Below are positions 3,356 through 63,241 of a stretch of 64,000 bases of DNA, piece by piece (positions within the stretch are counted from its first letter, which is position 1; every line of letters starts with the position of its first letter). A program made the translations under genes and the position numbers. Below the pieces are notes generated by a model, which saw nothing but the letters and a program-made list of their open reading frames with translations, was not told the origin of the DNA and searched no databases. The DNA comes from Mobula birostris (lineage: Eukaryota): the NCBI RefSeq assembly GCF_030028105.1, contig NC_092400.1, forward strand, positions 24,448,206 through 24,512,205. The letters are read 5' to 3'.

Positions 3356-4500
3356 GTAAGTTATTTAGTTCAAGGAAGTTTGCAGACAACTTTGATACTA
3401 TCACTTAGAACATCAAAAAGCTGATCGATCAATAATTGGAAGATTTTTGTACTCAGATAGTTAACATACACAACATTAATTTTGAGTGCTTGGGAACTCT
3501 GTAACCAGAAACATTTAGAACATTTGTGTGATAAGGTATCTGAAAAATTATCACAAGTCACCTAAGTGGCAAAAAAAAAAGGATTAAATGTTAGAGAGCA
3601 GTCTTGCTTGTTAGGAATGGTCAAGGAACAGCAAGAAGAATGACAGGAAGATGCAATGAAATCAAATCCATTCCTCTGCCTTTGATTTCTGCATTTGTCT
3701 GCTACTCATTGGTTTGTCATTTTAGCTTACTGGAACTGTTTAGGAGATCTCTTTTTTTTTAGAAATCATTTGTAATTTGGACATCTTTTGTCAGATTTAA
3801 ATATGGTTTAAGAAGTTTTAGTGTATCACTAAAAAAGTGTACTACTTTGTTAGCTGTAAGTATCTCCTCCTTAGTAGGGCAAGGGGACCCACTTCTCTAA
3901 TGCTGGGTATTGGCAGCTAAACTTGCATGGAGAATAAACAGGGAAGTGATCTAGTCTTTGAAGACTAGGTGACTACAGTATAGCCCTCCCTTAAGTGAGG
4001 GTACCTATAGGATAGGTCTTAAGATCCTTGCTTGAGTGTAGAACTTCACAGCCAGCAAACCCAATGCTATCGCAAAAGGAACATGTATACAAAACCTAGT
4101 TGGCCACGCCAGTAGAACACTGCATGAGTTCCATTAAACTGAAGCCCCATCTGCTCTAAAAGCATCATTAGCTCTCGTTCTGAAAGCAACATTCTGAAGA
4201 ACATTGAAATCTAAAATAAATCAGAAAATGCTGGCAATACTTGGAAGGCCAGGGAGAAATTGTGGAGAGGAAAACATTGTCAATGTTTCTGGTCAGCAAA
4301 CTATCATTACAACTGTTGAGAGGTCAATACAACATTACAAGGTCAATGTAACATTTTGAGAACTAACTGCGTTCTGATTAGTTGACATAGGTCTAATCGT
4401 AAGTGACCTTTCTTCAAAATACTTTTAATGCTTGATTAATGCCTTGAGAAACTGTAAGGTTGAATGAAAGTCCTTAATCTATAAAGAAGGTGAAGGCCTC

Positions 4501-4635
4501 TGCCCCTTCCCTCTACAGTCCTGACGGAGGGTTCCGGCCCGAAACGTCGACTCATCGTTTCCACGGTTGCTGCCCGAACTGCTGAGTTCCTCCAGCATGT
4601 TGTGAGTGTTGCTTTGACCTTAGCATCTGCAGAAT
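4501..4635 (+). mobile_element. Penelope-like element terminal repeat with hammerhead-ribozyme motif
   Basis: AGTC-CTGACGG-AGGG-TTCCGG-CCC-GAAACGTC-GACT, followed by the TGCTGAGTTCCTCCAGCAT tail also seen downstream of the GIY-YIG ORF at 58760-59440. Confidence 0.8.
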
Positions 4636-4785
4636 ACTTTGTAATTAATTGTCAAATTTGATAGAAAACTTGCAATGTTTGACATTGCAATATCAAAATA
4701 TTGTCTTTCATTGGTTTGGACAATACAAACTGATAACATAATCATCAAAATTAGATATATTGGATACATTACTGTAAGTCAGTTT

Positions 4786-5183
4786 AGGTGGTGGGGTGGA
4801 GATATTTCTCTATCAAAGAAGTATAAAGTATTCTTTCCTTCTGCAAGTCTGCATGTCACCCTTGGGCAAGGTGTAGCATCTGCTCAACATTCCCCCCTGC
4901 CCCCTTGATCAGGGTCAGGTGAAGCCATAGGGAAGAGGTGGTGGATGGTCATTTGAGCAGCTGGTGCATATCAGAAATCCTAGTTATGTGACCATTGAAC
5001 CAGGCAGACAGTCTCTGAAGAGTATTAATAATGGCTGGGGTCATCTGTCTTGTAAAGACACTGTGCAGAAGAAAGCAATGGCAAACCACTTCTGTAGAAA
5101 AATTTGCCAAGACCAATCATGGTCGTGGAAAGACCATGATTGCCTACATCATATGGCGTGACACATAATGAACAAGTGAATGA
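4786..5183 (+). mobile_element. ~390 bp SINE-like retroposon with RTE/BovB-type motif, copy 1
   Basis: GCAATGGCAAACCACTTCTGTAG motif, 3' hairpin ATCATGGTC...GACCATGAT, short-repeat tail; five loci in the window. Confidence 0.75.
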
Positions 5184-7284
5184 TTAAGTCAAATGCATGT
5201 TCAAAGTGGTGGGATTTTCAAGCCTGCCATCAAGGAGCAGACAGATTTAAGGAGGCAAAGAAATACAAGAAGCCAATTCCAGAATTTAGTGGAAGTCAAT
5301 TGTTGGCACTGCACAGATTCTAGTGGAGGACCACTGAAGATTGGAGACCATTGGTACTAAGAATTTGAGGATACAGAAGTTTGAGGGTTGTGGGGTTGGA
5401 GGAGATTTAAGAATCTGGAGAGTGATGATGGAGTGAATTAAGCATAAGAATGGGCATTTTAAATCTTAAGTGTTGTCGACCTGATGTTGTATCAAGGTCA
5501 CTGAACGTAGGGATGATACTCTATTGGATTTCCTTAAAAAAATAAAACTGCAGTCGTTCCTAATCTGATTAGCACATAATGATAACCAATGTACTATAAT
5601 TGTAAGCAACACACACAAGTATCACAAATCAGGCATTCAATATTTGCTATTCCCTCAGTATACATGCCAATTGTGTAATTACCATATTTTAATAGATTTT
5701 AGAAACATTAATTATTCATATGTTTATCCTTTACTAATTAATGTGATCATCTCCACTTTGCTCTCAATTACCCTTTAACCTTACAGAGCAATCCTTAACC
5801 TATTGTAGAATCCTCAGGTAAAATTTTGTGATTATTTGCTTGTGCACAGCATAATAAACAATCCAATTAAAATGACAATTAACGGTAATGAGCCTTGTCT
5901 ATTCCCGCCCAGAGGCTGATAACTGTCAGTGGCAGTCATAGCCTAAAAGACTTTGTATCCTAGTCTGTTGTGTTGGGTCTGTCCTCAGTGAATCGATTTC
6001 ACATATGTCAGTATATGTCCTACGTAAACTTATGTCTACATGATCAAGTAAAACCTGTATTTGTAGCATCAGGCACACTTGGATTGGGATTTCTTCCATC
6101 TGACTTAACTTAAGATTGCGTCAAAGTTTATGCAGCTATTTATACTGAATTTCCCAGCAGCAATTTATGCTAGATTTTCCCATGAATCTCACTAGAAAGT
6201 GCCTGAATGATAAACCTGGCATGAAAGAAGCAGAAATCAGCTTGCTAAAGCAGTGACAAATTTGTAGAAAATACAGAGCACATACAAAATGCTGGAGGAA
6301 CTCAGAAGGCCGGGCAGCATCTATGGAAAAGAGTAGGGTCAATCTTTCAGATTTAGATTTCCAGCCTCTGCAGATTTTCTTGTGCTTGTGTAGAAAATAT
6401 GGTTAAGACGTTCACATATTCTCAGCCATTTTGGCATGTAAACTTCTGCAAAGTGTTTCCTTTCCTCAAATGTCCACAAAGTTTGCAACAAAAATTAAAT
6501 GAAACAGCATTGCCTCTTTGGAACGTGCATTGATTATTGTGTTCTGCTAAAAACTGACTTCCCCTCTTGTATCAGCAAGACTTCTGTTTCATCTCAAGTA
6601 AGCTATTTTTTTTCAACTGAGACTGGAAGTGATTCCATGGAAATGAAGGTTTCTTAGGCATCTATCCAGAGATCTGTAAATCCAGGAATCCAGAAACACA
6701 GTTATAAACAAAATGAAATGTGAACTATTTACTGAGTCATTGCACAGATACATGACAAATCATCTTTGCTTGTTTTCAGGTGACAAAGTAGAAGGGTAAA
6801 TTGAATCTGCTTGAAATATTATTCTGGTAATTAACTTACACAAAACAAAGTAAAATGGAATGCAATGTAACTTCCTTGTCATTAATTTTACTTTGGATAC
6901 CCATCTAGCTTTCTAATATCAGTTGGCCTCTGATAGATTAATAAAAACATATAATCTATTCTTTGTTGATCTCTGAGGAGCCAAAGTCTTCACCACACAT
7001 AAAATATTTAATCATGAATAATAGGACACATTTTTCAGCTCACCCTCCCTGGAAGGCAGGCAGGATATGATTGATAAATATTGTTCTTTCACTGAGAAAA
7101 TCTCAGTAAAATGATTGCATCCCCAATACAACATTTTAATGATATTTGAAAGAGTGTGAGGGCAGAAGATATTAATCACAATCTGGTGGTGTTGACAAGT
7201 TAATGATAATTAATTCTTCAAAGTATTCAAATATAAGGTATACCAACAAAATTCAGAATTTTTTTTTATATTCTTGGCCTTACA

Positions 7285-7826: not shown

Positions 7827-8478
7827 TAGATTATAAGGACAGTCAGTCCTCGTTTATTGTCATTTAGAAATGCATGCATTAAAACATGATACAATGTTCC
7901 TCCAGAGAGATATCACAGAAACACAGGACAAACCAAGACTAAAACTGACAAAACCACATAATTATAACATATAGTTACAACAGTGCAAAGCAATACAGTA
8001 ATTTGATAAAGAGCAGACCTGGGCATGGTAAAAAAAGTCTCAAGTCCCGATAGCTCCATCATCTCACGCAGATGGTTAAAGGGAGAAACTCTTCCTGCCA
8101 TGAACTTCCAAGCACCGCAAACTTGCCGATGCATTGGAAGCACCCTACCGCAGCCGACTCTGAGTCCGCCCGAAAACTTCGAGCCTTCGACACCGAGCAC
8201 CAAGCGCCATCCTCTGCCAAGTGCCTCGAGCCCACCCCGGCCACCGAGCAACAAGCAAAGCCAAGGACTTGGGGCCTTCCGCTCTGGAGATTCTGGACCA
8301 CACAGTGGCAGTGGCAGCGAAGCAGGCATTTCAGAAGTTTCACCAGATGTTCCTCTGTGCTCTCACGTCTGTCTCCATCAAATCAGGATTGTGCACGGCA
8401 CTGTACTTGACAGATAACAGATATCATCAGCACCGGAGTGGCTGCTGCAGGCTGCGTCGCGCCGCTATCTTCTCCTCC
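7827..8478 (-). mobile_element. ~650 bp CpG-rich non-autonomous retroposon, copy 1
   Basis: Closely similar to 15243-15897 and 61297-61980; AATAAA, 3' hairpin and TAATC tail on the minus strand. Confidence 0.85.
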
Positions 8479-8919
8479 CTCCATATATTAAGGAACATAC
8501 CAGTTTTGTTTTTTTCGAACAGAAGATGCAATCACAGTCATTGGAGTCCAGCCTTGTGCAATGCCAATTGATAATTCAGCAATGGATGTTGTTCTGATGG
8601 TGATACAGTGCAAGATAAGCTTTTACATAAAATGTCTCTCAAAACTCCTCATCATCACCATTATGTGTTGTGTCGTGTGACATGGGTGATCTTGGTCTCA
8701 TGACCATGATTGCTCTTGGCAAATTTTTCTACAGAAGCGGTTTGCCATTGCTTTTTCTGGGCAGTGTCCTTATAAGATGGGTGACCACAGCCATTATCAA
8801 TGCTCTTCAGAGATTGTCTGCCTGGTGTTAGTGATGTGGAAATATACCTGTAATCCCTGAAGTCTTCATGAATTTGTAACTTCTGTAAAATTACAGTAAT
8901 GAAATGGGGTCTATGAAAT

Positions 8920-9497: not shown

Positions 9498-9622
9498 GAA
9501 AACAAGAGAAAGTCTGCAGACGCTGGAAATCCAAGTGACACACACAAAATGCTGGAGGAACTCAGCAGGCCAGGCAGCACCGAGGGAGAAGAGTTAACAA
9601 AGTTTCAGGCCGAGACCTTGGA
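9498..9622 (-). mobile_element. Penelope terminal-repeat fragment
   Basis: CACACAAAATGCTGGAGGAACTCAGCAGGCCAGGCAGCA...TTTCAGGCCGAGACC. Confidence 0.8.
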
Positions 9623-10044
9623 ACTTCCTCTCCTTCCCTCCAAGCTACAGACGTTGTAAATGCTGCAAAGATCAAATGTGTAAATGAGAGAAGGACGAAG
9701 GCAATGGAGAAATGCAGTGTTATGGAATGGAGCAACCTAATCACTGTTGGTATAAAAGTACTTTGATTGAAACAGGAGGTTGGAGCTATACTTCCAGGTG
9801 AAACTTGGCTGGAAGTGTATCTCCCCTTGCAGGTAAAATAAATGCGTTAATAATGTGATCCACTCTGAATTTGTTGTGGTTTGTTTCTTTATATTGGAAA
9901 ACCTAGCTGAATGGTACATGCCGGAGGTCACATAGCCAGAGATTGTGATATGCACCAGCTACTCATACGACCATCTACCACCTGCTCCCATGGCTTCAGG
10001 TGGGTTAGGTAGGTGTTACACCTTGCCCAAGGGTGACCTGTACG

Positions 10045-12052
10045 TATAGTATCAATTCCAAAGAAGAAACATACAATTAGCCAGAAAAACAGCACACCTG
10101 AGGACTGGGAGAAATTCGGAGTCCAGCAGAGGAGGACAAAGGGCTTAATTAGGAAAGGGAAAAAAAATTATGAGAGAAAGCTGGCAGGGAACATAAAAAC
10201 TGGCTGTAAAAGCTTTTATAGATATGTGAAAAGAAAAAGATTGGTTAAAACAAATGTAGGTCCCTTACAGTCAGAAACAGGTGAATTGATCATGGGGAAC
10301 AAGGACATGGCAGTTGAATATTGAATAACTACTTTGGTTCTGTCTTCACTAAGGAGGACATAAGTAATCTTCCAGAAATAGTAGGGGACCAAGGGTCTAA
10401 TGAGATGGAGGAACTGAGGGAAATACATGTTAGTAGGGAAGTGGTGTCAGGTAAATTGAAGGGATTAAAGGCAGATAAATCCCCAGGGCCAGATGGTCTG
10501 CATCCCAGAGTGCTTAAGGAAGTAGCCCAAGAAATAGTGGATGCATTAGTGATAATTTTTCAAAACTCTTTAGATTCTGAATTAGTTCCTGAGGATTGGA
10601 GAGTGACTAATGTAACCCCACTTTTTAAAAAAGGAGGGAGAGAGAAACCGGGGAATTATAGACCAGTTAGCCTGACATCGTTGGTGGGGAAAATGCTAGA
10701 GTCAGTTATCAAAGGTGTGATAACAGCACATTTGGAAAGCGGTGAAATCATCGGACAAAGTTAGCATGGATTTGTGAAAGGAAAATTATGTCTGACGAAT
10801 CTCATAGAATTTTTTGAGGATGTAACTAGTAGAGTGGATAAGGGAGAACCAGTGGATGTGGTATATTTGGATTTTCAAAAGGCTTTTGACAAGGTCCCAC
10901 AAAGGAAACTTAAAGCACACCATATTGGGGGTATGGTATTGATGTGGATAGAGAATTGGTTGGCAGACAGGAAGCAAAGAGTGGGAATAAACGGGACCTT
11001 TTCAGAACGGCAGGCAGTGACTAGTGGGGTACCGCAAGGCTCAGTGCTGGGACCCCAGTTGTTTACAATATATATAAATGACTTAGACAAGGGAATTAAA
11101 TGCAGCATCTCTAAGTTTGCAGATGACACGAAGCTGGGCAGCAGTGTTAGCTGTGAGGAGGATGCTAAGAGGATGCAGGGTGACTTGGATAGGTTAGGTG
11201 AGTGGGCAAATTCATGGCAGATGCAATTTAATGTGGATAAATGTGAGGTTATCCACTTTGGTGGCAAGAACAGGAAAACAGATTATTATCTGAATGGTGG
11301 CCGATTAGGAAAAGGGGAGGTGCAACGAGACCTGGGTGTCATTGTACACCAGTCATTGAAAGTGGGCATGCAGGTACAGTGGGGGGTGAAAAAGGCGAAT
11401 GGTATGCTGGCATTCATTGCAAGAGGATTCGAGTACAGGAGCAGGGAGGTACTACTGCAGTTGTACAAGGCCTTGGTGAGACCACACCTGGAGAATTGTG
11501 TGCAGTTTTGGTCCCCTAATCTGAGGAAAGACATTCTTGCCATAGAGGGAGTACAAAGAAGGTTCACCAGATTGATTCCTGGGATGGCAGGACTTTCATA
11601 TGATGAAAGACTGGATCGACTAGACTTATACTCGTTGGAATTTAGAAGATTGAGGGGGATCTTATTGAAACATATAAAATTCTAAAGGGATTGGACAGGC
11701 TAGATGTAGGAAGAGTGTTCCCAATGTTGGGGAAGTCCAGACGAGGGGTCACAGTTTGGGGATAAAGGGGAAGGTTTTTAGGACTGAGATGAGGAAAAAC
11801 TTCTTCACACAGAGAGTGGTGAATCTGTGGAATTCTCTGCCACAGGAAACAGTTGAGGCCAGTTCATTTGCTATATTTAAGAGGGAGTTAGATTTGGCCC
11901 TTGTGGCTAAAGGGATCAGAGGGTGTGGAGAGCAGGCAGGTACAGGGTTCTGAGTTGGATGATCAGCCATGATCATACTGAATGATGGTGCAGGCTCGAA
12001 GGGCCGAATGGCCTACTCCTGCACCTATTTTCTATGTTTCTCTGTTTCTATG
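10045..12052 (+). mobile_element. 5'-truncated CR1 LINE with disrupted ORF2 reverse transcriptase
   Basis: KSPGPDG, NYRPVSLTS, YLDFQKAFDKVP, GVPQGSVLGP, FADDTKL; in-frame stop near 10762 and frameshift near 11660; TTCTATGT tail. Confidence 0.96.
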
Positions 12053-13233
12053 TTAACAGAGGGAAGGAGCACCTTACACCTCCTTTGTTAGAGACGAATC
12101 TCCAGCCTGCCACCCAAAACTACAACAATGCTTAAACTATATTGAATGCCAATTTAGATATGAACAAGAAAGTCTGTTCTGTTATCCTGGCCACTTTGGA
12201 ATAACCTAACTGGATTTGTACCTTGCTTTACTGTGGCATTTGGATGAGTGCAGGAACACGATCTCTTGTTTTCTCTTTCTTGAATACATTGAAAACATGT
12301 TGGTCAGTGATTATATCTGAAGGCGGGGACAAAACCAGCATTTACAATGTCTGCAGCTTGGAGGGAACGAGAGGAAGTTATGGAGCAAAGGGGAAGAAGT
12401 TAGTTTAGAGAGTTGGCGTGGGGATGAGGAAGAGCGGCTGAAGATCCTGAAGCATCGTATGATTAATTATTGACAAAACCTTTGATGACTCTGAAAATCA
12501 GTGTGCAGCAAGGTCAGCAAATGGAATTCTCCTTATTCTGCTTTTTCTCCATGTAGATTTTGGCTGTGGGAATAGCACTTTACAGGCAACTTCCCAAGAT
12601 ACATAAGAGTTCTATTCTTAGGAGCTATCTGTAAGATGACTTCCCCATAAGTCTTAAGCACTCTTAAGTCTTCTATGACCTGATCCATTTTCTATCATAA
12701 TCCACGTCAATTCGCTCTCCATACATTTGCTATAATACTTTCATTTTATTCGATAATCGCCTGAAAACTATCCATAATTAAATTAATGGAATATATACTG
12801 TATCCACTCACTAATCAATACCATGATTTATTATTAGTATCTATACTTGGAGAAGCCAAATGGATTGCAACTCACTATTATATTTTTTTTCACTCAAGTT
12901 GGTAAAACCTCTGGTGCAGGCATAGCAAAGCAAACTGATTTCTCAATTGCTAGGATCTTTTGGACTATTCTAGTGGTGTTTAGTGTTGTCGCTTTCTGGG
13001 GATTTACATAAATATTGCTGCGTCGGTCTAATTGTTTATTACTATTGTGTAGAACCTTTGGGATGATACCAGTCGACGATATTACTTTTGGGAAAATGTA
13101 TACCATGTTCATGTTCTATAGTCTTTCAATTTCCTCTTTTAATTCAGCATTTTTCTGGTGTTTTTCACATTGATTTCTGGATGTTATGTGTGTTTGGAAT
13201 GGCTATGCCTATTAAGTAAGTTGTTCTTGCTAG

Positions 13234-15242: not shown

Positions 15243-15897
15243 AGGAGGAGAAGATGGCGGCGCGACGCAGCTTGCGCAGCCACTCCGGTGAATGATATCT
15301 GTAATTTGTCAAGTAGGGTGCCCTGCACAATCCTGATTTGATGGTGACAGATGTGAGAGAACAGAGGAACATCTGGAGAAATTTCTGAAATGCCTTTTTC
15401 GCTGCCGCTGTTACTGTGTGATCCAGAGTCTCCGGAGGGGAAGGCCCCTTGGCGACCAGGACAGGGTTGAAGAGCTCGGCAGAGATGGTGCTCGGTGTTT
15501 GGTGTCGAAGGGCTGGTCGGAGGCTTGAAGTTTTCAGACGGACTCAGAGTCGGCTGTGGTCGGCTGCTTCCAATGCATCGACATTTGTCGGTGTCTGGAG
15601 GTTTATGGCAGAGAGAGTTTCTCCCTTCCGCCGCCTGCTATAGGAGACTATCGGGAGTCGATCAGAAATTTGAGACTTTTTTTTACCGTTCCCATGGTCG
15701 GCTCTTTATCAAATTATGGTATTACTTTGCACTGCTGTAACTATATGTTATAATTATGTGGTCTTGTTAGTGTTAGTCTTTGGTTTGTCCTTTTTTTTGT
15801 GATATCACTCTGGGCGAGCATTGTATCATTTCTTAATGCATGTATGCACTTCTAAATGACAATAAACGAGGACTGAGTGTCCTCATAATCTAATCTA
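15243..15897 (+). mobile_element. ~650 bp CpG-rich non-autonomous retroposon, copy 2
   Basis: Starts GGAGGAGAAGATGGCGGCG; ends AATAAAC-GAGGACTGAGTGTCCTC-A(TAATC)n; ATATC on both flanks; interrupts the R4 RT. Confidence 0.88.
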
Positions 15898-17711
15898 ATA
15901 TCTCTAAAAAATAGTACTATTATTTGAATTAAGTGTTTTAGCTTTACTGATGAAGAAGTGTACAATTTCAAATTGTTCATGTACAGAAGATGTGTCAAGG
16001 TATAATTTGTTTGGATATCTCTGATTTGATACCCTATTTTCATCCAATTCAGTAAATTAGAGAGTAGGTTTAAAGCTAGAGAAAACCATAGTAGGCTTAA
16101 ACAGTCGGCCTGGAAAATGCCTTGGTGTATTTTGATAACGGTGGTTATTCTTTTTTGGTTGTTAATAAATAAGGAGATTATAGTATGCCAATGGTTCATC
16201 AGATGCAATAGGAATTTCACAAGTATTGGGTGTAGTTTATATATATTAAGAGCTTCTATTAACGTGAATGTGGGACAGAAACAAATGCCTTTTGGTAGTC
16301 AATATAACATGAAAGATTTCTGCATTTCTTCAGGGCTTGATTTAGAATTACAGAATCTATTATCAGTTGTTCTTTACATCCTTTCATGCCCTTATGGCAT
16401 CCTTTCTGCTCTTCTGTAAGCATACTGTGGTTATCTACAGTAAGTGAGTGGTGATTAGTTGCAAGATACAAGATGTTACCATTTTATAAATAGTTTGTAA
16501 ACATGTAATAGGACAATATTTTGATGGATCGTCTGTGATTTCCCCTGTGGGTAAAAGATATGTTTAACCTTCTGTCGAAAATTCAGCCACTTTTTCAGGA
16601 ATTTTAAGAAAAATGTTGGTATGTATTAATCAGTACAGATGAAGGCAGGTAACTTTTTTATCCCAATATTTATCATTATAATCACTGCATACATGTTTTA
16701 TAACTGCTTTTAGCATATCTATTATAACTTCAGGTGTTTGTATGTCTTCAATTGTGTGAGTGTATTCTTTTTCCTTCCAAATTCAGCTTACTTTTTAATG
16801 GTGCATCACCCTGTTTGACTAGATATTAAACTAAAAGTTCATTGTATCTCTGTAGGTGATTCTTTGCTAGGGTTGGTGACATTTTGGTGTGTTGAATCTA
16901 GTTTCAATGTCCTGTATAAAGTTTGTTTTTATTATTCCTGAACTCATAATTCTGTTTACTTTGTCTTTCGCATTTCATGTATTTATTAAGTCTGTCTTTG
17001 TATACACCAAGCTTTTGTTTTAGTCTATCTTTCATTAGGCAGATCATATCATGTATGGACCTTATATTTCTTTAGTATTTTCTTAGCTTTTCTCTTAACT
17101 TTCTTTCTCAAGTTATCTATTTTGTATTCCATTAGGCGGGCTATTTCTGCCCCTAAGGTTCAATTTTGTTTCTTAATCTCTTCTGCCATTTCAGTGTTCT
17201 TGTTTCATTGCTCAGTTTTGGGTCTCTATTAATGGCTGTGTCTAATTTGGAGCCATTGCACTGCACTGCTGTTAATGCTGCATAGTACGGTATTATGTGT
17301 AGTTCTTCAAATGTTTCAAGTTTTCCTAAATATGGTGGTAATATAGTATTTTTGAAATCATTAACAATTTTTATGAATTTTGGTGACGTGTTTTGTTTTG
17401 GTATGTATGGTCTTTGTGTTGGGTCAGTGTCCATGTATTCTGTTAGAGTGTTGTTAAATGTTAGAATATTTTTGTCTGTAAACTCAGCTTCATTATCAGT
17501 ATTCTGTAGAGGCCTTACGTCTGTGTTGTTGCTATTACCGTTAGGTTGTGGAGCAGTTGTTGGAGTAATGCTATTTTCATCACCGTTTCGGGGTGTGGCA
17601 CCTTCATTATATTCTTGTACAGCATTGTTGTGGTCTTTGAGTTGGTTTCTTTCTAGCTCTTGCCCTGCATCATGTTTTATTTGGTTTAACAATCTATAGA
17701 GATTAATCAAA

Positions 17712-18702
17712 TCACAAACAAGAGCAAGTCTGCAGGTGCTGGAAACCTGAGCAACACACACACAAAATTCTGGAGGAACTCAGCAGGCCAGGCAGCATCT
17801 AAGGAAAAAAGTACGGTCGACGTATTTGCTAATTGCCAGCTGCTTTTGGAGGAAGGCCCCTGTACTCGAGCGGTTCCTCCCTCTCTCTTCTGATGGGGCG
17901 AGAGGGAGCCTGTCGGTTCTCGAGACGGGAGTCTTGGAGGAGCAACGTGGAAGATGATAACATCAGAACAGCAAGTTGCTGATCTCAGCTCGCATTGTTG
18001 CAGGAGTGATCTCTCTCTCCCTTGTTGGGAAAGAGAGCCTGTCTGAGATACTGAAGTGCTAGATTATGGACTGTAGCTGGATGGACTCTGGATTAAGGAC
18101 TCTTTGGGGCTTCCACTGTGAAGTGCATTGTAGGTTGTTGGGGTGGGAGGGTCAGTGCTTCTGCAGGTGTGGGTGGGGGGAGAAGTAGAGTCGATACTTT
18201 CGCTGCTGCTTATGCAAAGGCAGGGGGCTTTGGGGCTTGGGTGCTTCTATCATTCATTCTAGTGGCTTTCTTTGTTTGGTGGGTCCCCACCACCACCCAG
18301 ATCATGCTCTCTTCTTGCTGCTGTAATCAGGTAGAAAGACCAAGAGCCTCAGGACCACCAGGTTCAAGAACAGTTGCTACCTCTCAACCATCAGGTTCTT
18401 GAATAAAAGGGGATAACTGCACTCAACTTCACTTGCCCCATCACTGAAGTGTTCCCACTACAAATGATCTCATTTCAAGGACTCTTTGTCTCATTATCTC
18501 ATGGTTTCATTATTTATTGCCATTTACATATTTATATCTGCATCTGCAGTTTGTTGTCTCCTGCACTCTGGTTGATCTTTCTTTGATCCTGTTATAGTTA
18601 CTATTCTATAGATTTGCTGAACAAGTTCACAAGAAAATGAATCTCAGGGTTGTATATAGTGACATACATGTACGTACATAATAACATTTATGTTGAGCTT
18701 TC
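17712..18702. mobile_element. Composite insert in R4: Penelope terminal fragment (-), non-autonomous Rex1-tailed family piece (+), Rex1 3' end (+)
   Basis: 17712-17823 Penelope tail; 17830-18282 homologous to the reverse of 33700-34200; 18283-18702 Rex1 3' region. Confidence 0.7.
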
Positions 18703-21798: not shown

Positions 21799-23286
21799 GA
21801 ATCAGAATGAGGTTTAATATTACCAGCGTATGGAGTGAAATTTGTTAACTTTGTGGTTGTACTACAATGCAATCAATACATGATAAATATAGAAAAAAAT
21901 GAATTACATGTATATATATTAAATAGCTAAATTAAATAAGTAGTGCATAAATAGAAACTAATAACATATTCAGAAAGTCAGAAGGCATGGGATCCAGGGA
22001 AGTTTGGCCAGGTGGATTCAGAATTGGCTTGCCTGCAGAAGACAGAGGGTCATGGTAGAGGGAGTACATTCAGATTGGAGGATTGTGACTAGTGGTGTCC
22101 CACTAGGATCGGTTCTGGGATCGCTACTTTTCGTTATTTTTATTAATGACCTGGATGTGGGGGTAGAAGGGTGGGTTGGCCAGTTTGCAGACGACACAAA
22201 GGTTGGTGTGTTGTAGATAGTGTAGAGGATTGTCAAAGATTGCAGAGAGACATTGATAGGATGCAGAAGTGGGCTGAGAAGTGGCAGATGGAGTTCAACC
22301 CAGAGAAGTGTGAGGTGGTACACTTTGGAAAGACAAACTCCAAGGCAGAGTACAATGTAAATGGCAGGATACTTGATAGTGTGGAGGAGCAGAGGGATCT
22401 GGGGGTACATGTCCACAGATCCCTGAAAGTTGCCTCACAGGTAGATAGGGTAGTTAAGAAAGCTTATGGGGTGTTAGCTTTCATAAGTCGAGGGATAGAG
22501 TTTAAGTGTTACGATGTAATGATGCAGGTCTATAAAACTCTGGTTAGGCCATACTTGGAGTACAGTGTCCAGTTCTGGTTGCCTCACTATAGGAAGGATG
22601 TGGAAGCATTGGAAAGGGTACAGAGGAGATTTACCAGGATGCTGCCTGGTTTAGAGAGTATGGATTATGATCAGAGATTAAGGGAGCTAGGGCTTTACTC
22701 TTTGGAGAGAAGGAGGATGAGAGGAGACATGATAGAGGTGTACAAAATAATAAGAGGAAAAAATAGAGTGGATAGCCAGCGCCTCTTCCCCAGGGCACCA
22801 CTGCTCAGTACAAGAGGACATGGCTTTAAGGTAAGGTGTGGGAAGTTCAAGGGGGTATTAGAGGAAGGATTTTTACTCAGAGAGTGGTTGGTGCGTGGAA
22901 TGCACTGCCTGAGTCAGTGGTGGAGGCAGATACACTAGTGAAGTTTAAGAGACTACTAGACAGGTATATGGAGGAATTTAAGGTGGGGGGTTACATGGGA
23001 GGCAGGGTTTGAGGGTCGGCACAACATTGTGGGCAGAAGGGCCTGTACTGTGCTGTACTATTCTATTCTATAACAAGTAGTGAAGTTTTGTTCATTGGTT
23101 CAATGTTCATTTAGAAATCTGATGGCAGAGGGGAGGAAGCTGTTCCTGAATCACTGAGTGTGTGCTTTCAGGCTTCTGTACCTCCTTCCTGATGGTAGCA
23201 ATGAGAAGAGAGCATGTCCTGGGCGGTGGGGTCTTTAATGATTGATGTGGCCTTTCTGAGGCACCGTTCCTTGAAGATGTCTTGGA
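21799..23286 (-). mobile_element. Rex1/Babar 3' fragment split by CR1 21967-23070
   Basis: GAATCAGAAT tail at the left end; host sequence resumes near 23075; ATAACA on both sides of the CR1. Confidence 0.75.
21967..23070 (+). mobile_element. 5'-truncated CR1 LINE
   Basis: SGVPLGSVLG, FADDTKV, FNPEKCEVVHFG, ERVQRRFTRMLPG; (TTCTA)n tail. Confidence 0.95.
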
Positions 23287-24479: not shown

Positions 24480-24692
24480 CAATCGAAAGAAAATCTGCAG
24501 ATGCTGAAAATCAAAGCAATACACACAAAATGCAGGAGGAATTCAGCGGGCCAGGCAGCCTCTACGGAAAAGAGTAAACAGAAAGCGTTTTTGGCTGAAT
24601 CCTGATGCAGGGTCTCGGCTCGAAATGTCGACTGTTTACTCTTTTCCGCAGATGCGGCTGGCCTGCAGAGCTCCTCCAGCATTTTGTGTGTA
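24480..24692. repeat. Fold-back pair of Penelope terminal repeats enclosing a hammerhead motif
   Basis: Arm 24521-24581 is the near reverse complement of 24632-24692; spacer contains CTGATGCAGGGTCTCGGCTCGAAATGTC. Confidence 0.85.
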
Positions 24693-27195: not shown

Positions 27196-27526
27196 AGATT
27201 TCATAATAGCTAAAGAAAATCAAAAGAAAATCTGCAGATACTGGAAATCTGAAATAACAGAAAGACTGCAAATGCATGAAGCACTTAGCTACCCAGACAA
27301 TATCTATGCAAAGGATAATGTTTTGTATTATTGATCATTGACCAGAACATTTTTTTTATGACCAACTGGTATTTTTGTGACCATTGTTTAACATGCTAGG
27401 GCTTTCTCTCTATCATCACCATTATCATTATCACTATTACTTTATCACTTCTTGTCAGTCACCTGATGTACAGTCACTCCTGTGTCTAGTGTCATTTTAG
27501 GAACATACAATCAATCTTTGTTTATA

Positions 27527-27765
27527 AAGCAACACACATAAAACGCTGGAGGAACTCGGCAGGTCAGACATAACCTATGGAAATGGATAGACAGTTGACG
27601 TTTCGGGTCGAGACACTTCATCAGGACTGCAAAGGAAGGAGGAAGAGGCCAAGATAGAAAGGTGGGAGTGAGGGGAAGGAGGTTAGCTAGAAGGTGATAG
27701 ATGAAGCCAGGTGTGTGGGAAAGGTCGAGGGCTGGAGAAGAGGGAATCTGACAGGAGGTGAAAGA
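27527..27765 (-). mobile_element. Penelope 3' UTR/terminal repeat with the best-preserved hammerhead motif (27592-27629)
   Basis: Minus strand reads CAGTC-CTGATGA-AGTG-TCTCGA-CCC-GAAA-CG-TC-AACTG. Confidence 0.85.
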
Positions 27766-28044
27766 GTGTGTAAGCTATCTGATGTATTTATATTTATTGT
27801 GTTTTGTTACTATTATTATTATTATTATTATTGTGCTCTTTATCTTGTTATGTTTTTTATGTTGATCTGGAATAACAATTATTTTGTTCTCCTTTACACT
27901 TGTGTATTGGAAATGACATTAAACGATCTTGAATTTTGATTCCTGAATCTCTTTGGAGTGAAGGAGGATGAGAGGTGACTTGATAGAGTGCATAAGATGA
28001 TATGGGACGTAGATGGATTGGACAGTAGGCACCGTTTTGCCAGA

Positions 28045-28287
28045 GCGCAGTGGTTAGTGTGATGCAATTACAGCTTGGGGCATTCTGGAGTTCAGAGTTC
28101 AATTTTATCACTGTACATCTTCCCCATGGAATTCCCCAGTTGGCTCATATTCCTCCCACAGTCCAAAGACGTACCAGATAGGTACATTGTAAATTGTCCC
28201 GTGGTTAGGTTAGAGGTAATTGAGGTTGTGGGTTGGCTGGAGTGGTGTTGGAAGACCCTACTCCATGCTGTATTGCTAAATCAAATC
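28045..28287 (+). mobile_element. tRNA-derived V-SINE, decayed
   Basis: GCGCAGTGGTTAG head; TTCCTCCCACAGTCCAAAGACGTAC; CATTGTAAATTGTCCC. Confidence 0.7.
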
Positions 28288-28384
28288 ATGGGTTGGAGGG
28301 ACTGTACTTTGCTGCACTGTTCCAAGTTTAATGAAAACAAAACTTCAGATTCTGAAATCTGGAACAAAAACAAAAGATATCAAA

Positions 28385-28772
28385 CAAAGCAACACACACG
28401 AAAGGCTGGGGGAACCCACAGGTCAGGCGGCATCAATGGAAATGATGCTTTCAGGCCGAGACCCTTCTTCAGGACTGGAAAGGGAGAGGGGAGATGCCAG
28501 AATGAAGAAGTGGAGGGGGGGGGAGGGCAAGGAGGGTAGCTAGGAGGTGATAGGTGAATTCAGGTGGGTAGGAAAGGTAAAGGGCTGGAGAGGAAGGAAT
28601 CTGATAGGAGAGGAGAGTGAACCTTAGGAGAAAGGGAAGGAGGAGAGGACCTAGAGGAGAAGATAGGCAGGTGAGAAGAGGTAAAGGGCCAGAGTGGGGA
28701 ATAGAAGCGGGGAAGGGGGAGGGATATATTTTTACTGGAAGGAGAAATTGATATTCATGCCATCAGGTTGGA
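28385..28772 (-). mobile_element. Penelope 3' fragment
   Basis: ORF end QPDGMNINFSFQ-stop, pyrimidine-rich 3' UTR, CTGAAGAAGGGTCTCGGCCTGAAA hammerhead remnant. Confidence 0.85.
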
Positions 28773-28969
28773 TGGAAACTCAGCCAGTCAAGAGGCATTT
28801 GTGGAAAATGAAACTGGTTAATATTTCAGGTGTAAGACCATTGAAAACTTTAACTGGTTTCTCTTTCAATGCCTTCTGTTTGAGTGATGAAATGCTTCAA
28901 TGCTTCTGTTTTTGTTTCAATTTCATTACCTTAACTAAGTTTGATTTAATAGATTTACTAGATACTAGC

Positions 28970-31900
28970 TGTACCATATACCTCCTGTACATGGTGCAGG
29001 AGGGAGGGCTTCAGATTTATAGATAATTGGGCAGTTTTCCAGGGAAGGTGGGACCTGTTCCGATGGGATGGTTTACATCTGAACTGGAGAGGGACAAATA
29101 TTCTTGCAGGTAAGTTTGCTAGAGAGGCTTCAGTGAATTTAAACTAGATACGGGGGCGGGGGACGCGGAGTATAGGAACAGATGTAGGGGAAAAGGAAGA
29201 AAAAGAAAATAGTAAAGTTGTTTGCACAGTTGGTGATAAACAGAGAGTAAGAGATGGAAAATTTCTTAAATGCATTTGTTTTAATGCTAGGAGCATTATA
29301 AGAAAGGTGGATGACCTTAAAGCATAGATTGATACCTGGAAGTATGATGTGTTAGCTATTAGTTAAACATGGTTACAGGAGGGGTATGATTGGCAACTAA
29401 ATATTCCTGGATTTAATTGCTTCAGGTGTTTTAGAATGGGAGGCACAAGAGGGGGAGGTGTTGCATTGCTTGTCAGAAAAGATATTACAGTGGTGCTCTG
29501 GCAGGATAGGTTAGAGGGCTTGTCTAGGGAGGCTATTTGGGTGGAATTGAGGAATGAGAAAGGTGTAGTAACACTTATGGGGGTGTATTATAGACCACCA
29601 AATGGGGAGCGAGAATTGGAGGAGCAAATTTGTAAGGAGATAGCAGATATTTGTAGTAAGCACAAGGTTGTGATTGTGGGAGATTTTAATTTTCCACACA
29701 TAGACTGGGAAGCCCATGCTGTAAAAGGGCTAGGTGGTTTAGGGTTTGTAAAATGTGTGCAGGATAGTTTTTTGCAGCAATACATAGAGGTACCAAATAG
29801 AGAAGGGGCAGTGTTAGATCTTCTGTTAGGGAATGAGATAGGTCAGGTAACGGAGATTTGTGCTGGGGAGCACTTTGGGTCCAGTGATCACAATGCCATT
29901 AGTTTCAATATAATAATGGAGAAGGATAGGTCTGGACCCAGGGTTGAGATTTTTGATTGGAGAAAGGTTAACTTTGAGGAGATGCGAAAGGATTTAGAAG
30001 GAGTGGATTAGGACAATTTGTTTTATGGGAAGGATGTAACAGAGAAATGGAGGTCATTTAAAGGTGAAATTTTGAGGGTACAGAATCTTTATGTTCCTGT
30101 TAGGTTGAAAGGAAAAGTTAAAAGTATGAGAGAGCCATGGTTTTCAAGGGATATTGGAAACTTGGTTCGGAAGAAGAGAGAGATCTACAATAAATATAGG
30201 CAGCTTGGAGTAAATGAGGAATATAAAGAATGTAAAAAGAATCTTAAGAAAGAAATTAGAAAAGCTAAAAGAAGGTATGAGGTTGCTTTGGCAAGTAAGG
30301 TGAAAATAAATCCCAAGGGTTTCTACAGTTATATTAATAGCAAAAGGATAGTGAGGGATAAAATTGGTCCCTTAGAGAATCAGAGTGGACAGCTATGTAT
30401 GGAGCCAAAAGAGATGGGGGAGATTCTGAACAATTTCTTTTCTTTATTATTCACTAAGGAGAAGGATATTGAATTGTGTAAGATAAGGGAAACAGGTAGG
30501 GAAGTTATGGAAACTATGATGTTTAAAAAAGAGGAAGTACTAGTACTTTTAAGGAATAAAAAAGTGGATAAGTCTCCGGGTCCTGACAGGTTATTCCCTA
30601 GGACCTTGAGGGAAGTTAGTGTGGAAATAGCAGGGGCTCTGACAGAAATATTTCAAATGTCATTAGAAACGGGGATGGTGCCAGAGGACTGGCGTATTGC
30701 TCATGTTGTTCCATTGTTTAAAAAGGGTTCTAAGAGTAAACCTAGCAATTATCAGCCTGTGAGTTTGACGTCAGTGATGGGTAAATTGATGGAAAGTATT
30801 CTTAGAGATGGTATATATAATTATCTGGATAGACAGGGTCTGATTACGAACAGTCAACGTGGATTTGTGCGTGGAAGGTCATGTTTGACAAATCTTATTG
30901 AATTTTTTGAAGAGGTTACTAGGAAATTTGACGAGGGTAAAGTGGTGGATGTTGTCTATATGGACTTCAGTAAGGCCTTTGACAAGGTTCCACACGGAAG
31001 GTTAGTTAGGAAGATTCAATCGTTAGTTATTAATATTGAAGTAGTAAAATGGATTCAACAGTGGCTGGATGGGAGATGCCAGAGAGTAGTGGTGGATAAC
31101 TGTTTGTCAGATTGGAGGCCGGTGACTAGTGGTGCGTCTCAGGGATCTGTACTGGGTCCAATGTTGTTTGTCACATACATTAATGATCTAGATGATAGGG
31201 TGGTAAATTGGATTAGTAAGTATGCAGATGATACTAAGATAGGTGGAGTTGTGGATAATGAAGTAGGTTTTCAAAGCCTGCAGAGAGGTTTAGGCCAGTT
31301 AGAAGAGTGGGCTGAAAGATGGCAGATGGAATTTAATGCTGATGAATGCGAGGTGCTACATTTTGGTAGGACAAATCAAAATAAGACATACATGGTAAAT
31401 GGTAGGGCATTGAAGAATGCAGCAGAACAGAGGGATCTAGGAATAATGATGCATAGTTCCCTGAAGGTGGAATCTCATGTGGATAGGGTGGTGAAGAAAG
31501 CTTTTGGTATGCTGGCCTTTACAAATCAGAGCATTGAGTATAGGAGATGGGATGTAATGTTGAAATTGTACAAGGCATTGGTAAGGCCAAATTTGGAGTA
31601 TTGTGTCCAGTTCTGATCACTGAATTATAGGAAAGATGTCAACAAAATAGAGAGAGTACAGAGAAAATTTACTAGAATGTTACCTGGGTTTCATCACCTA
31701 AGTTACAGAGAAACGTTGAACAAGCTGGGTCTTTATTCTTTGGAGCGTAGAAGGTTGAGGGGGACTTGATAGAGGTGTTTAAAATTATGAGGAGGATTGA
31801 TAGAGTTGACGTGGATAGGCTTTTTCCATTAAGAGTCAAACAAGAGGACATGAGTTGAGAGTTAAAGGCCAAAGTTTAAGGGTAACATGAGGGGGAACTT

Positions 31901-38507: not shown

Positions 38508-38834
38508 ACTTTTAAATAGGAGTTCTTAAACACCAGTATTGTTAATGTAGATGAAAATTCAGGATACTCTAGCTTTCTTGATGGCTTTTAGCCGTGAAAA
38601 GGCTCTGCATAGACTCATTTGGTCTGTTTCACTACAAAATGACCTGCTGATCGTGAAGCAGGAAGAACCTAGTATGATTCTAGTGCTAATTCCTCTCTAT
38701 AGTTGCTATCTGACTTGCTGAGTTCACCTCGCATTTTGTGCTTTCAGCGTTGGATCTACAGAATCCCTTATGTTTAGGACACTGGATCTACATTTCACAA
38801 TGATCGGCTGATTTGTTCAGTAGGAATGCATCCT

Positions 38835-41698: not shown

Positions 41699-41830
41699 AA
41701 GTCTTGAAGAGGTGTCTCAGCATGAAATGTCGACTGTTTACTCTTTTCCACAGATGCTGCCTGACCTTCTGAGTTTCTCCAGCATTTTGTGTGTGTTGCT
41801 TTGGATTCCAAGCATCTGCAGACTTTGTGT
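41699..41830 (+). mobile_element. Penelope terminal-repeat fragment, degenerate hammerhead
   Basis: GTCTTGAAGAGGTGTCTCAGCATGAAATGTCGACTGTTTACTCTTTTCC... Confidence 0.8.
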
Positions 41831-47750: not shown

Positions 47751-48154
47751 TAATGTAGTGGCTAGTTTGAGAATTGCGAGCTCCAATACGATAATAAGCA
47801 GATAAGCTATTCTCTGCATTGGTTGAGCGACAAACAATAGCTACATCACATCATTTACTGTCTCTAGATTTACGCACTGTTGCAATCCATGCATGTTGCC
47901 ATTTCTCCCCGTAACCATCCCATCACATATTCCCACCCCCCCGCACCATTATCTTACTTGTACACTAAATGTGAGGAAATTGTACTCAGCGCCTGCACAT
48001 CAGATTCTCTAATCTTTGTCAACAACACAGAATTACTTCTTCTGGCACTGTCTCAACATTTTCCAAATTTGATGAAAGATGATAATTTTGAAACATTAAC
48101 TTGAAATATTTCTCTTGGTAGCTGGATTACCAAGTTTATCAGAGATACAAACAG

Positions 48155-58659: not shown

Positions 58660-58759
58660 TTACAATTCTTTGTATTATTTTGGAATCTTCTCGGGGAAAT
58701 CTCATTTTTGAATAGGGGCTATCTAACTGGTTAATTCTTATCTATAAATTTGAATGGAG

Positions 58760-60620
58760 GCAACACACACAAAATGCTGGAGGAGAACAGTGTCTATCGA
58801 AAAGAGTAAATGGTCAAAGTTTGGGGCTGAGACCCTTTATCAGAACTGGTAAAAAAATGATGAGAAGTTAGAGCACCTTCTGGTGGAGGGAGGGGAGGAA
58901 GAAGTACAAGGTAGTAGGTGATAGGTGAAACTGGGAGAGGGGGAGGGAGTGAAGTAAAGAGCTGGGAAGATGATAGGTGACAGAGATAAAGAACTGGAGA
59001 AGGAAGGATCTGATGGAAAGGGTAGATGACCATGGTAGAAAGGGAAGGGGTAGGAGCACCAGAGGGAGGTGATGTGCAGGTAAGGAGATAAGGTGAGAGA
59101 GGGAAACAGGAATGGGAATGCTGGGAGGGGGACATTTACTGGAAGTTTGAGAAGTCGAATTTCATGCCATCAGGTTGGAGGCTACCGAGACGGGATATGA
59201 GGTGTTGCTCCTCCAACATGTGTGGCCTCATCACGGCAGTAGAGGAGGCCATGGACTGATATGTCAGAATGGGAATGGGGTGTAGAATTGAAATGAGTGA
59301 GCACCAGAAGATCCGGCTTTTTCTGGCAGACGGAGTATAGGTGCTTGGTGAAGCGATCTCCCAATTTAAGTCGGGTTTCACCGATGTACTGCAGGCCACA
59401 CAGTAGATGCTCCCAACAGACTCACAGGTGAAGTGTCGGCTCACCTGGAAGGATGGTTTGGGGCTCTGAATGTTAGTGAGGGAGGAGGTGTAGGGGCAGG
59501 GGTAGCACTAGTTCCGCTTGCAGGGGCAGGGACCAGGAGGGAGATCAGTGGAGGGGGATGAATGGACAAGGGAGCCGCGTAGAGAGCAGTCCCTGCGGAA
59601 AGTGGAAAGTGCGGGAGAGGAAAGATGTGCTTGGTGGCAGGTCTTGGCAGGCACGGAACTCGCTGAGGTGTGGGCGCAATGGGACAAAGGTAAGGCCTTG
59701 CTGAGGACAGAATGCTCTGCCTCAGAGAGGGGAAGGTCAGAGGGAATAGTGAAGACCTGGCACAGATGAGAGCTGGGATCGGGGGGGGGGGGGGGAAGGG
59801 GTCTGGTAGTGTCTGGGGAGAGGGGAGGGTTGGATGTTTCAGGGATGGTGGGGTGGGAGGAAGATGGAGCCTCTGAGGACCCAAGAGTTGATGGTGGGAC
59901 CTGAGAGACACAGAGTAGTGGTGGGGGAAGGGGAGACAGGGGTTCCAGTGGCAGCACGTAAAGTTCCTACCTAGAAGTGCTGTTGGTCAAGGTCAAGGCC
60001 GGAGTTGGAGTTGGAGGTTGTGCAATTGGCACTTTGGAGGTGTCCGAGGTGGTTGGAACCTGCATGGTTGGCTGTGGAGTCCGGGTTTTGAATCTGCTCG
60101 GGATTGCCAGAGCCGTTGAGCACGGCAGCAGGGATCATGACCTGGAGACGCCCGTGCCTGTCAGCTTTGGAGACAGCAGGTTCTGTAGTCTGCGGATGAG
60201 CGATCCTCTGATGCTTGCAGGATGTGAGAAAATCAAAGAACTGGCAACTGAAATTGTGGATTTGACAGAGGATGAAGTATCAGACATGTACATTACAGGT
60301 GGCAGAGAGAGAATCCGGAAGTTGTGGAAGCGATTGGAATAGGGACCCCAGGTACCTCCTCTTGGCGGAAAGCATGGAGCGTAGAAGCAGTCAATTGATT
60401 GTGAGTACCCTGGGTTATCAGAGGGCCCGAGTTGAGAAGGTTGAAAACTGACCTGGAAGCCATGTGGCACAAGATGGCAGCAAAGACATACGCCCCCAGG
60501 AAGAATACGCAGCTGTGGTAGCAGATTTGGGTGAGCGCATGGTCGAAGAGTTGGAGGGCAGCTGAGATCGCAGAAGGGGAGTAGTGAAAGAAGGTTTCAC
60601 TGAATCTCGCAGAGGGGAAG
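58760..60620 (-). mobile_element. Internally deleted Penelope-like element: N-terminus plus GIY-YIG endonuclease, no RT
   Basis: FSETFFHYSPSAISAALQLFDH; VFTIPSDLPLSEAEHSVLSK; FRRDCSLRGSLVHS; HFTCES..IYC; GDRFTKHL..HFNS; EEQHLISRLGSLQPDGM; terminal repeat with hammerhead remnant. Confidence 0.88.
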
Positions 60621-61296
60621 ATTTGAATTTCTTCGGGGTAGGTATCCCTAATTAGAAAGGAATGCCTGTTATCTATGGTATAAGAACATGTCACATCATC
60701 ATCTTCTCTTCTTTTTTTCTTCTTTGTTATTCTTTCCTGACTTTGCTACTAGACTTTTGCTGCTCTCTGTTTCCGATTCCTTTGTTCTCTTAGCACTTAA
60801 TAAAATGCTCGTGAAGCAACTTATGCCTCATTTTTGACTTCTGAAAGAACCTCAGATCAAAAAGATCAGATTCCAAAGGAAGGATGACAAATGTAGGGAG
60901 AGAGGGAGTGAGGGGATGATGGCACTGGGAAAACAGGGAAGAGAGATTAAAGGGAACATGTGGGCTAGATTTCGTTTGTGTTTAGACCTATGTGTTTGTC
61001 CATAGACACAACAGAACTTTCTCCATTCAGTTTGCAACTTCCTTGTCCTTGTACCAAAACCTTGCTCTGGCAATGTTGCATGTTAATTGGTGTGCATGTG
61101 AATGGCTACCACTTCCCAGAACCAGAGGAAGCAGGCCTTTAAATCCAGGAGAATGCCTAAGAACTTTGGAATTCAGTGGAATATTGGAATCAAGGCTTTA
61201 ATGAGGTCTGGATCTGAGCAGTTCTAGCAGAAACCAAATTGAGCATCAGCGGGAAGTTTCACAAACATAAAAAAATCTGCTAATATGTCCTTAGGT

Positions 61297-61980
61297 GGGA
61301 GGAGAAGATGGCGGCGCGATGCAGCTCGCAGTGGCCACTCTGGTGGTGATGTCTTTTATTTGTCAAGTAGGGTGCCGTGCATAATCCTGATTTGATGGAG
61401 ACAGATGTGAGAGCGCGGAGGAACATCTGGTGAAACTTCTGAAATGCCCGCTTCGCTGCTGCTGCTACTGTGTGGTCCAGAATCTCCGGAGGAGAAGGCC
61501 CCGAGTCCTTGGCTTTGCTTGTTGCTCGGCGGCCGGGGTGGGGTCGAAGCACTCGGCAGAGGACGGTGCTCGGAGAGGCTGTGTCGGAGGGGCTGGTCGG
61601 AGGCTCGAAGTTTTCGGACGGGCTCAGAGTCGACTGCGGTCGGGTGCTTCCCATGCATCGGCAAGTTGGCGGTGCTTGGAGGTTCACGGCAGGGAGAGTT
61701 TCTCCCTTCTGCCGCCTGCTATCGGGACTATCAGGAGTTGATCGGAACTTTGAGACTTTTTTTTACCGTGCCCATGGTCTGCTCTGTATCAAATTGTGGT
61801 ATTGCTTTGCACTGCTGTAACTATATGTTATAATTATGTGGTTTTGTCAGTTTTAGTCTTGGTTTGTCCTGTTTTTTTTTGTGATATTATTCTGGAGGAA
61901 CGTTGTATCATTTTTTAATGCATGCATTTCTAAATGACAATAAACGAGGACTGAGTGTCCTCATAATCTCATCTAATCTA
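61297..61980 (+). mobile_element. ~680 bp CpG-rich non-autonomous retroposon, copy 3
   Basis: GGAGGAGAAGATGGCGGCG start; GAGGAC-TGAGT-GTCCTC hairpin; TAATC tail. Confidence 0.88.
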
Positions 61981-62894: not shown

Positions 62895-63029
62895 AAAACA
62901 AGAGAAAATTTGCAGGTGCTGGAAATCCAAGCAGCACAAACAAAATGCTGAAGGAACTCAGCAGGCTAGGCAGCATCTATGGAAAAGAACAAACAGTTGA
63001 CATTTTGGGTTGAGACCCTTCATCAGGAC
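62895..63029 (-). mobile_element. Penelope terminal repeat with hammerhead remnant
   Basis: Minus strand GTC-CTGATGA-AGGG-TCTCAA-CCC-AAAATGTC-AACTG (GAAA changed to AAAA). Confidence 0.85.
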
Positions 63030-63241
63030 AATTAAGCTGAGATTGCTAGTGAGTTGTCAGCTAAAAGGTCTTCACTGTGCCTGCTTCAATTTTCAATACA
63101 CGGAACTTTTGAAACCTTGTAAAGGGCTGTTGCATCACTGATCTGCTTTCTCTTTGTGCTCTGCTATGACCCTGACCTGGTAGTCATTCCATGGTGCTGG
63201 GACATGGCACTTGAACATTCAGGCAGAAGACTGTGTGCAGA

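Follow-up and report, generated by a model that had tools for sequence, protein, structure and literature searches.

The window analysed here, a 64-kb stretch of DNA from Mobula birostris, carries a short hammerhead-like motif at several dispersed sites. This raises the question whether the copies belong to a mobile RNA in its own right, as an earlier note on the same DNA had proposed, or are the remains of a retrotransposon. The scattered copies are an ordinary repeat and not a new mobile RNA. They have a common 3′ end, which in one case is attached to the endonuclease of a Penelope-like element (PLE), their 5′ ends are staggered, inverted pairs with a one-sided tail occur among them, and every hammerhead bears a lesion. 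The motif is very probably a minimal type I hammerhead in the 3′ region of a Neptune-type PLE, and its copies are 5′-truncated, partly inverted and mutated remnants, for which target-primed reverse transcription is the likely origin and no activity is predicted. The individual features are compiled in Table 1.

Table 1. Hammerhead motifs, repeat copies and PLE relics in the 64-kb window. Numbers with a sign give 5′ ends relative to the predicted cleavage site.
Feature	Position	Strand	Description
Focal hammerhead	4516-4553	+	A9>G; outer stem I pair C-C, leaving a 4-bp stem I
Focal predicted cleavage position	4548/4549	+	
Hammerhead	24597-24634	+	A9>C
Hammerhead	27592-27629	-	Only copy with the exact catalytic core
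Hammerhead	~28444-28477	-	Deletion of the cleavage site along with the 3′ strand of stem I
Hammerhead	41699-41736	+	C3>U
Hammerhead	58811-58848	-	G8>A and G12>C
Hammerhead	62994-63031	-	G12>A
Focal insertion	4495-4633	+	21 bp of pyrimidine-rich 3′ UTR, hammerhead, 3′ end and tail; 5′ end -54
Longest copy	58756-60620	-	RT-deleted, frameshifted Neptune-type PLE (putative type): N-terminal piece, linker, GIY-YIG, 3′ UTR, dead hammerhead
Linker and GIY-YIG relic	59139-59618	-	Cx4Cx2C; stop at 59510-59508; frameshift near 59400
N-terminal PLE protein relic	59652-59831	-	tblastn and profile
5′-truncated copy	28382-28772	-	5′ end within the final codons of the PLE ORF
5′-truncated copy	27526-27768	-	5′ end -175
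Older partial arm	28773-28831	-	Directly upstream of the 28443 copy, same orientation; 11.0 bits
Head-to-head inverted pair	24482-24691		Minus arm 24482-24600 with tail; plus arm 24600-24691 without tail, A9>C hammerhead
Second inverted pair	6279-6389		Minus arm 6279-6352 without tail; plus arm 6353-6389 tail only
Short copy	41700-41826	+	Start at helix I (-32), with tail
Short copy	62896-63029	-	Start at helix I (-31), with tail
Short copy	9500-9617	-	Start within the hammerhead (-19), with tail
Short copy	17716-17823	-	Start shortly upstream of the cleavage site (-5), with tail
Older, more diverged copy	4193-4316	-	Profile, 23.3 bits
Older copy, 3′ part only	27218-27316	-	Profile, 17.2 bits
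Older copy, 3′ part only	38683-38772	+	Profile, 27.9 bits

The hammerhead motif and its state of preservation

The focal motif spans positions 4516-4553 (+), and the interval 4517-4552 corresponds to the version with a 4-bp stem. All seven main motif sites listed in the earlier note were confirmed, and self-comparison revealed the motif to be a portion of a longer repeat. A DNA profile of the 3′ end of this repeat identified 16 arms in the window above 8.2 bits, which was the best score among 20 block-shuffled windows (best score in the reversed window, 4.5); 11 of these matches formed the training set, and five lay outside it. Together, the 16 arms amount to ~3.8 kb, or 6% of the window. The profile search added nine arms to those listed before (4193-4316, 6279-6357, 6353-6389, 9500-9617, 17716-17823, 24482-24600, 27218-27316, 28773-28831, and 38683-38772). 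Two sites that had been regarded as older variants are plausible by eye and did not stand out in the profile search: the candidate at 2180 (-) scored 4.9 bits, which is within the shuffle range, and the one at 48068 was absent from the profile output at E ≤ 20.

The family consensus, derived from 11 arms, comprises a 5-bp helix I, CUGAUGA, an extra A, a 4-bp helix II with a 4-nt loop, GAAA, a self-complementary ACGU replacing helix III, and GUC. All consensus features described earlier (stem I, core, extra A, stem II, ACGT palindrome, and GUC) are thus present. Copies are 75-87% identical to the consensus, and the focal copy reads CTGACGG instead of the previously given CTGA(T/A/C)GA, i.e., A9 is replaced by G. 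The exact core pattern was matched once in the window, compared to 1.24 matches expected by chance, and a search against Rfam (4227 families) returned no match at E ≤ 1. It is therefore the family consensus, rather than any individual copy, that carries the argument. As judged from the sequence, this consensus fits the published consensus for minimal type I hammerheads of PLEs. According to PMC4209133, the metazoan PLE hammerheads share with it CUGANGA plus an extra residue, G10.1-C11.1, GAAA, the loopless palindromic 15.2-16.2, an NUH triplet, and a short open helix I with a pyrimidine-rich 5′ side; they likewise occur mostly as solo dispersed copies from truncated PLEs, with some opposite-strand pairs. 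A difference concerns helix II, which has 4 bp and a 4-nt loop here and 7-8 bp in Schistosoma (PMC4209133).

None of the seven copies combines an intact core with both stems and the cleavage site. In the copy that retains the exact core, 27592-27629 (-), the stem I pair beside the cleavage site is a C-A mismatch, and one stem II pair is broken. From hammerhead biochemistry, it is known that A9>G, C3>U, G8>A, and changes of G12 abolish activity or strongly reduce it. The roles of G12 and G8 in the hammerhead are described in PMC6155905, and a literature search for the effect of A9G gave nothing relevant. The copies in the window are thus predicted to be inactive. CpG positions within the hammerheads were changed in 14 of 52 cases. 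Core positions were changed less frequently (4/69) than downstream positions (58/409; two-sided p = 0.055), which we tentatively put down to selection on the source elements and ascertainment.

Folding of the 38-nt consensus yielded the 5-bp stem I and the 4-bp stem II with pair probabilities of 0.9-1.0. Single copies folded no better than shuffles (z from -1.4 to +0.4), and within its 3′-end context, the consensus was not predicted to form the hammerhead stems. The monomer was predicted to misfold, with the cleavage triplet bound by G5-G8, and the double hammerhead reached -19.9 kcal/mol versus -33.7 kcal/mol for the best alternative duplex in a nearest-neighbour calculation that ignores tertiary contacts. 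Covariation was weak. In an alignment that took in the unconfirmed candidates at 2180 and 48068, two-sided changes were found in four of nine pairs, a number equalled by 119 of 500 shuffles, and the covariation score was reached by 7 of 500 shuffles. As a single case, the copy at 41699-41736 (+) has its stem II pair 10.2-11.2 altered on both sides, from G-C to U-A.

Relation to a Penelope-like element

The earlier proposal that the hammerheads belong to Penelope elements was borne out by the longest copy (58756-60620), which carries a zinc-finger linker and a GIY-YIG endonuclease. Upstream of its end at 58756, this copy comprises a pyrimidine-rich 3′ UTR and then a broken reading frame, and the hammerhead follows the GIY-YIG stop codon at a distance of ~290 nt. 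The 59139-59768 frame, with one stop read as X, was applied to a phmmer search, revealing 346 proteins at E ≤ 0.001 (best match 1.3e-29, 73% identity). Among 14 matches scanned for domains, the nine with a length of 750-930 aa all contained RVT_1, and eight of these also contained GIY-YIG. The best named relatives come from stingray (73% and 69% identity in the best stretch), whale shark, and electric ray. When compared to one full-length relative, 59774-59652 corresponds to residues 173-216 and 59618-59233 to residues 760-897. The separation of these two blocks implies that, between 59652 and 59618, the copy lacks ~540 codons including the RT core. Both tblastn and a profile built from 10 full-length relatives confined the PLE coding pieces (N-terminal and linker/endonuclease) to 59139-59966, where nothing corresponds to profile positions 200-731; by the profile, the endonuclease was matched at 59185-59421 (E = 1e-13) and 59139-59507 (E = 1.4e-9), and a weak N-terminal match reached 60488 (E = 0.001). 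The CCHH motif of the endonuclease is readable across the frameshift. A Pfam search with the relic frames gave no family at E ≤ 0.01 and nothing useful at E ≤ 10, and a word-indexed comparison to longer proteins left no scoring match among 822 candidates.

The endonuclease is preceded by a Cx4Cx2C motif, which spans the in-frame stop at 59510. A CX2-5CxxC linker marks Neptune and Nematis (PMC8557442). By its linker and endonuclease, the longest copy is putatively assigned to the Neptune type, with the reservation that the linker is common to Nematis and that the RT is absent from the window. No intact member of the Neptune clade, i.e., of these endonuclease-bearing PLEs, and no autonomous PLE was found in the window; in the longest copy, the RT core is deleted, stops and frameshifts interrupt the coding sequence, and an upstream terminal repeat is lacking. 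An 8-bp word present at 60628-60621 and again at 58755-58748 (null probability 0.078) suggests a 1.87-kb insertion with a possible flanking duplication. The copy at 62896-63029 was considered as the 5′ repeat of this insertion and rejected, as it lies 2.3 kb apart and has its own flanking duplication. In its present form, 58756-60620 (-) is an RT-less deletion derivative with fused N-terminal and endonuclease parts. PLE coding pieces also lie inside public ray gene models named 'mucin-2' and 'polycystin-1-like' (P0002, P0003, and P0006), and these models are likely annotation artefacts.

Ends of the copies and alternative origins

Relative to the predicted cleavage site, the 11 well-preserved arms have their 5′ ends at ~-1805, -328, -175, -54, -32, -31, -30, -19, -17, -11, and -5. 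The ends at -17 and -11 result from ungapped extension (16/25 and 12/23 matches), and strict local alignment places them at +2 and +7. No arm starts exactly at the cleavage site. Scattered 5′ ends had been named in the earlier note as a sign of plain truncation, and the observed spread from -1805 to -5 largely corresponds to this. The 3′ ends fall into two classes, from +63 to +75 without a tail and from +90 to +103 with a tail of ~35 bp, and in both inverted pairs (24482-24691 and 6279-6389), the tail is present on one arm only. Besides 58756-60620, two copies extend into the PLE 3′ UTR or the end of the ORF. The same features are described for published PLE insertions, which are truncated at the 5′ end, have inverted upstream arms, and may carry a tail of 30-40 bp (PMC8557442, PMC3846280). 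Most single minimal hammerheads were read as truncated PLEs in 2014 (PMC4209133), and an excess of short ORF-less copies is expected from the 5′ truncation of PLEs (PMC4209133, PMC8557442). A clear target duplication was found for one of the 16 arms, namely the ~132-bp copy at 62896-63029, which is flanked by an 8-bp direct repeat (63035-63028 / 62895-62888; null probability 0.0043 per copy, 16 arms tested). A 7-mer listed as a target duplication of the 58815 arm was discarded as an artefact of reference length. At the junction between the 28773-28831 arm and the 28443 copy (-), we noticed a short TCCA-type microhomology on both sides, and this junction looks like a template jump or a deletion in a partial tandem.

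For such remnants of a Neptune-type PLE, a route of formation can be outlined. Elsewhere in the genome, an intact element in partial-tandem form would carry two hammerheads on one transcript, and pairing of their self-complementary ACGU sequences could create a common helix III. By analogy with related motifs, the paired hammerheads of the intact element would probably cut slowly after GUC and thus process its RNA, trimming it out of a longer precursor; the basis for this type of RNA processing by PLE hammerheads includes the review PMC6765202. The PLE protein would then nick the DNA, prime at the 3′ end, and mostly halt early, so that short 3′ ends would accumulate. Early stops or template switches during target-primed reverse transcription could give rise to the short, inverted, and deleted forms. 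As the inserted copies span the cleavage position, their templates were uncut, or rejoined, at this site.

We complemented the window by contigs from three public runs of one study, which have the same species label and are RNA only by guess, and compared them to positions 27450-28900 at 80% likeness. The majority letters of the listed contigs agree with the family consensus and restore G10.2 (at least 87-106 contigs per run), and loose ends supply the cleavage-site segment that is deleted in the 28443 copy (at least 54-78 contigs; best 18 of 1650 listed). Contigs continuing into the end of the ORF numbered at least 65 in one run, a count in which long copies are favoured. There was no pile-up of contig starts or ends among the rows listed for 27450-28900, and intron ends were not found among the best 15 of 226 contig joints, a result of little weight.

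In one alternative, which we consider quite unlikely, the ~130 bp between helix I and the tail end would form a SINE- or retrozyme-like unit that lacks autonomy and is moved in trans by the PLE protein; its tandem source arrays would lie elsewhere in the genome, and the window would hold scattered solo monomers. In line with this, the 5′ ends of three copies cluster at -30, -31, and -32 (p = 0.004 for a fixed window of 3 nt selected afterwards), and the flanking repeat of the copy at 62896-63029 would also fit an insertion of this unit. However, the cluster at helix I has a p-value of 0.165 for any window and of 0.07-0.8 at realistic boundary error, other start points were found in eight of the 11 arms, and a start at -30 leaves as few as two of the five pairs of stem I. 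A monomer released by cleavage is expected to start at +1 and to end with the 5′ half of the ribozyme, a permuted order that is found in no copy. Most contigs on stem II also reach upstream of stem I (at least 62-77 past its 5′ edge versus at least 87-106 inside stem II per run, with long copies favoured). Head-to-tail arrays of the 3′ end are absent from the 64-kb window; a preprint (10.64898/2026.07.22.740005) that reports retrozymes in one chondrichthyan describes monomers as spread over the chromosomes and arrays as clustered, so a source array could lie outside the window. With staggered 5′ ends, no clean start at the cleavage site, and no tandem array, the independent retrozyme-like unit of the earlier note finds no support in the window. 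We regard as similarly improbable that the PLE family additionally sheds a defined noncoding unit of ~130 bp, starting in a splice-acceptor-like manner at the 5′ strand of helix I, as a solo, non-tandem retrozyme precursor that is moved by the PLE protein in sharks and rays. The four copies with upstream sequence retained all have a pyrimidine tract followed by CAG at helix I, ending within its 5′ strand (4517-4518, 27627, 28475, and 58846), and in Penelope of Drosophila virilis, an intron ends at helix I. Each of three longer 3′ UTRs contains three to five other sites of this kind, and a U-rich 5′ side belongs to the published consensus of minimal hammerheads (PMC4209133); the CAG at helix I was therefore rejected as evidence for a splice acceptor.

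The hammerhead likeness could also be coincidental or vestigial. The hairpins would then be a signal that the retrotransposon uses for protein binding or priming, in a sequence that never self-cleaves. The lack of an Rfam match, the weak covariation, and the predicted pairing of G5-G8 with the cleavage triplet are in line with this, and roles other than cleavage were allowed by the authors of the 2014 study (PMC4209133). We nevertheless consider it unlikely, as the consensus reported from many unrelated animal PLEs is matched at each of the 11 fixed core positions, in the extra residue, in G10.1-C11.1, and in the palindrome and NUH, the motif sits at the expected place near the PLE 3′ end, and related motifs cleave as dimers (PMC4209133, PMC6765202). 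We consider it very unlikely that individual scattered copies are still active and cleave a host pre-mRNA or another read-through transcript. The exact core of 27592-27629 and the abundance of related copies in contigs of the runs guessed to be RNA could speak for such activity, but this copy has the stem I and stem II mismatches described above, and the closest copy on its strand (28443) is without the half that bears the cleavage site. Furthermore, cleavage was undetectable for a single minimal hammerhead and low for dimers (PMC4209133), and eight of nine Xenopus dimers did not cleave (preprint 10.64898/2026.07.22.740005). No convincing non-repeat Pfam domain was found in 146 non-repeat frames of ≥62 aa (five weak or retroelement matches), and the strands of the solo copies (three plus versus nine minus) show no significant bias (p = 0.15). 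A location within a long host intron is possible. For the cleavage of host pre-mRNA that the earlier note had envisaged, we thus found neither an intact copy nor a usable tandem partner nor a host exon. A search of sequencing runs with positions 4300-6300 listed no RNA run, which says nothing on expression.

Known systems and neighbouring repeats

As truncated PLE remnants with minimal hammerheads, the copies are of a kind already described in 2014. Animal non-LTR retrozymes resemble them in the type I hammerhead, the short noncoding units, the proposed origin from PLE terminal repeats, and the occurrence of solo monomers (PMC7229834; preprint 10.64898/2026.07.22.740005). However, retrozymes are described there as head-to-tail arrays of ~150-450 bp units with mostly canonical hammerheads and circular RNAs, whereas the copies in the window are solo or inverted, have 5′ ends staggered into the PLE ORF, and carry a minimal hammerhead. 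Unlike the fixed unit boundaries of retrozymes, 5′ ends coincide in only three of the 11 arms. Exact motif scans gave no matches in metagenome contigs, viral contigs, and prokaryote genomes, and a protein-based scan of viral contigs gave no match either. Regarding cartilaginous fish, supplement file 2 of PMC4209133 contained no match for shark, Callorhinchus, Leucoraja, or skate, and no shark- or ray-specific description was found in openly accessible papers. The window adds a cartilaginous-fish example, i.e., a dense PLE family whose 3′ ends carry a minimal hammerhead, and the compact 38-nt consensus is an easy substrate for addressing the role of weak ribozymes in Penelope elements. How retrozymes split off from PLE terminal repeats would become apparent only with a genome-wide peak of 5′ ends at the helix I boundary.

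Much of the remaining window is occupied by relics of LINE-type RT and endonuclease. Large relics are located at 29367-31616 (+), 10318-11866 (+), and 22070-22938 (+), with AP endonuclease and RT identified by Pfam on 29367-31613; we take these three relics to be of the CR1/L2 type. At 15855-17779 (-), frames resembling another non-LTR retrotransposon, without a Pfam match at E ≤ 0.01, are split by the 17716-17823 PLE arm. A repeat of ~680 bp is present three times (7827-8482, 15244-15899, and 61294-61977; 79-85% identical) and contains open frames of 120-160 codons on both strands, one of which was searched against Pfam and gave no match. Finally, a 44-bp sequence occurs twice with 93% identity, at 9622-9665 (-) and 12336-12379 (+), and one of its copies adjoins the 5′ end of the 9500-9617 PLE arm.
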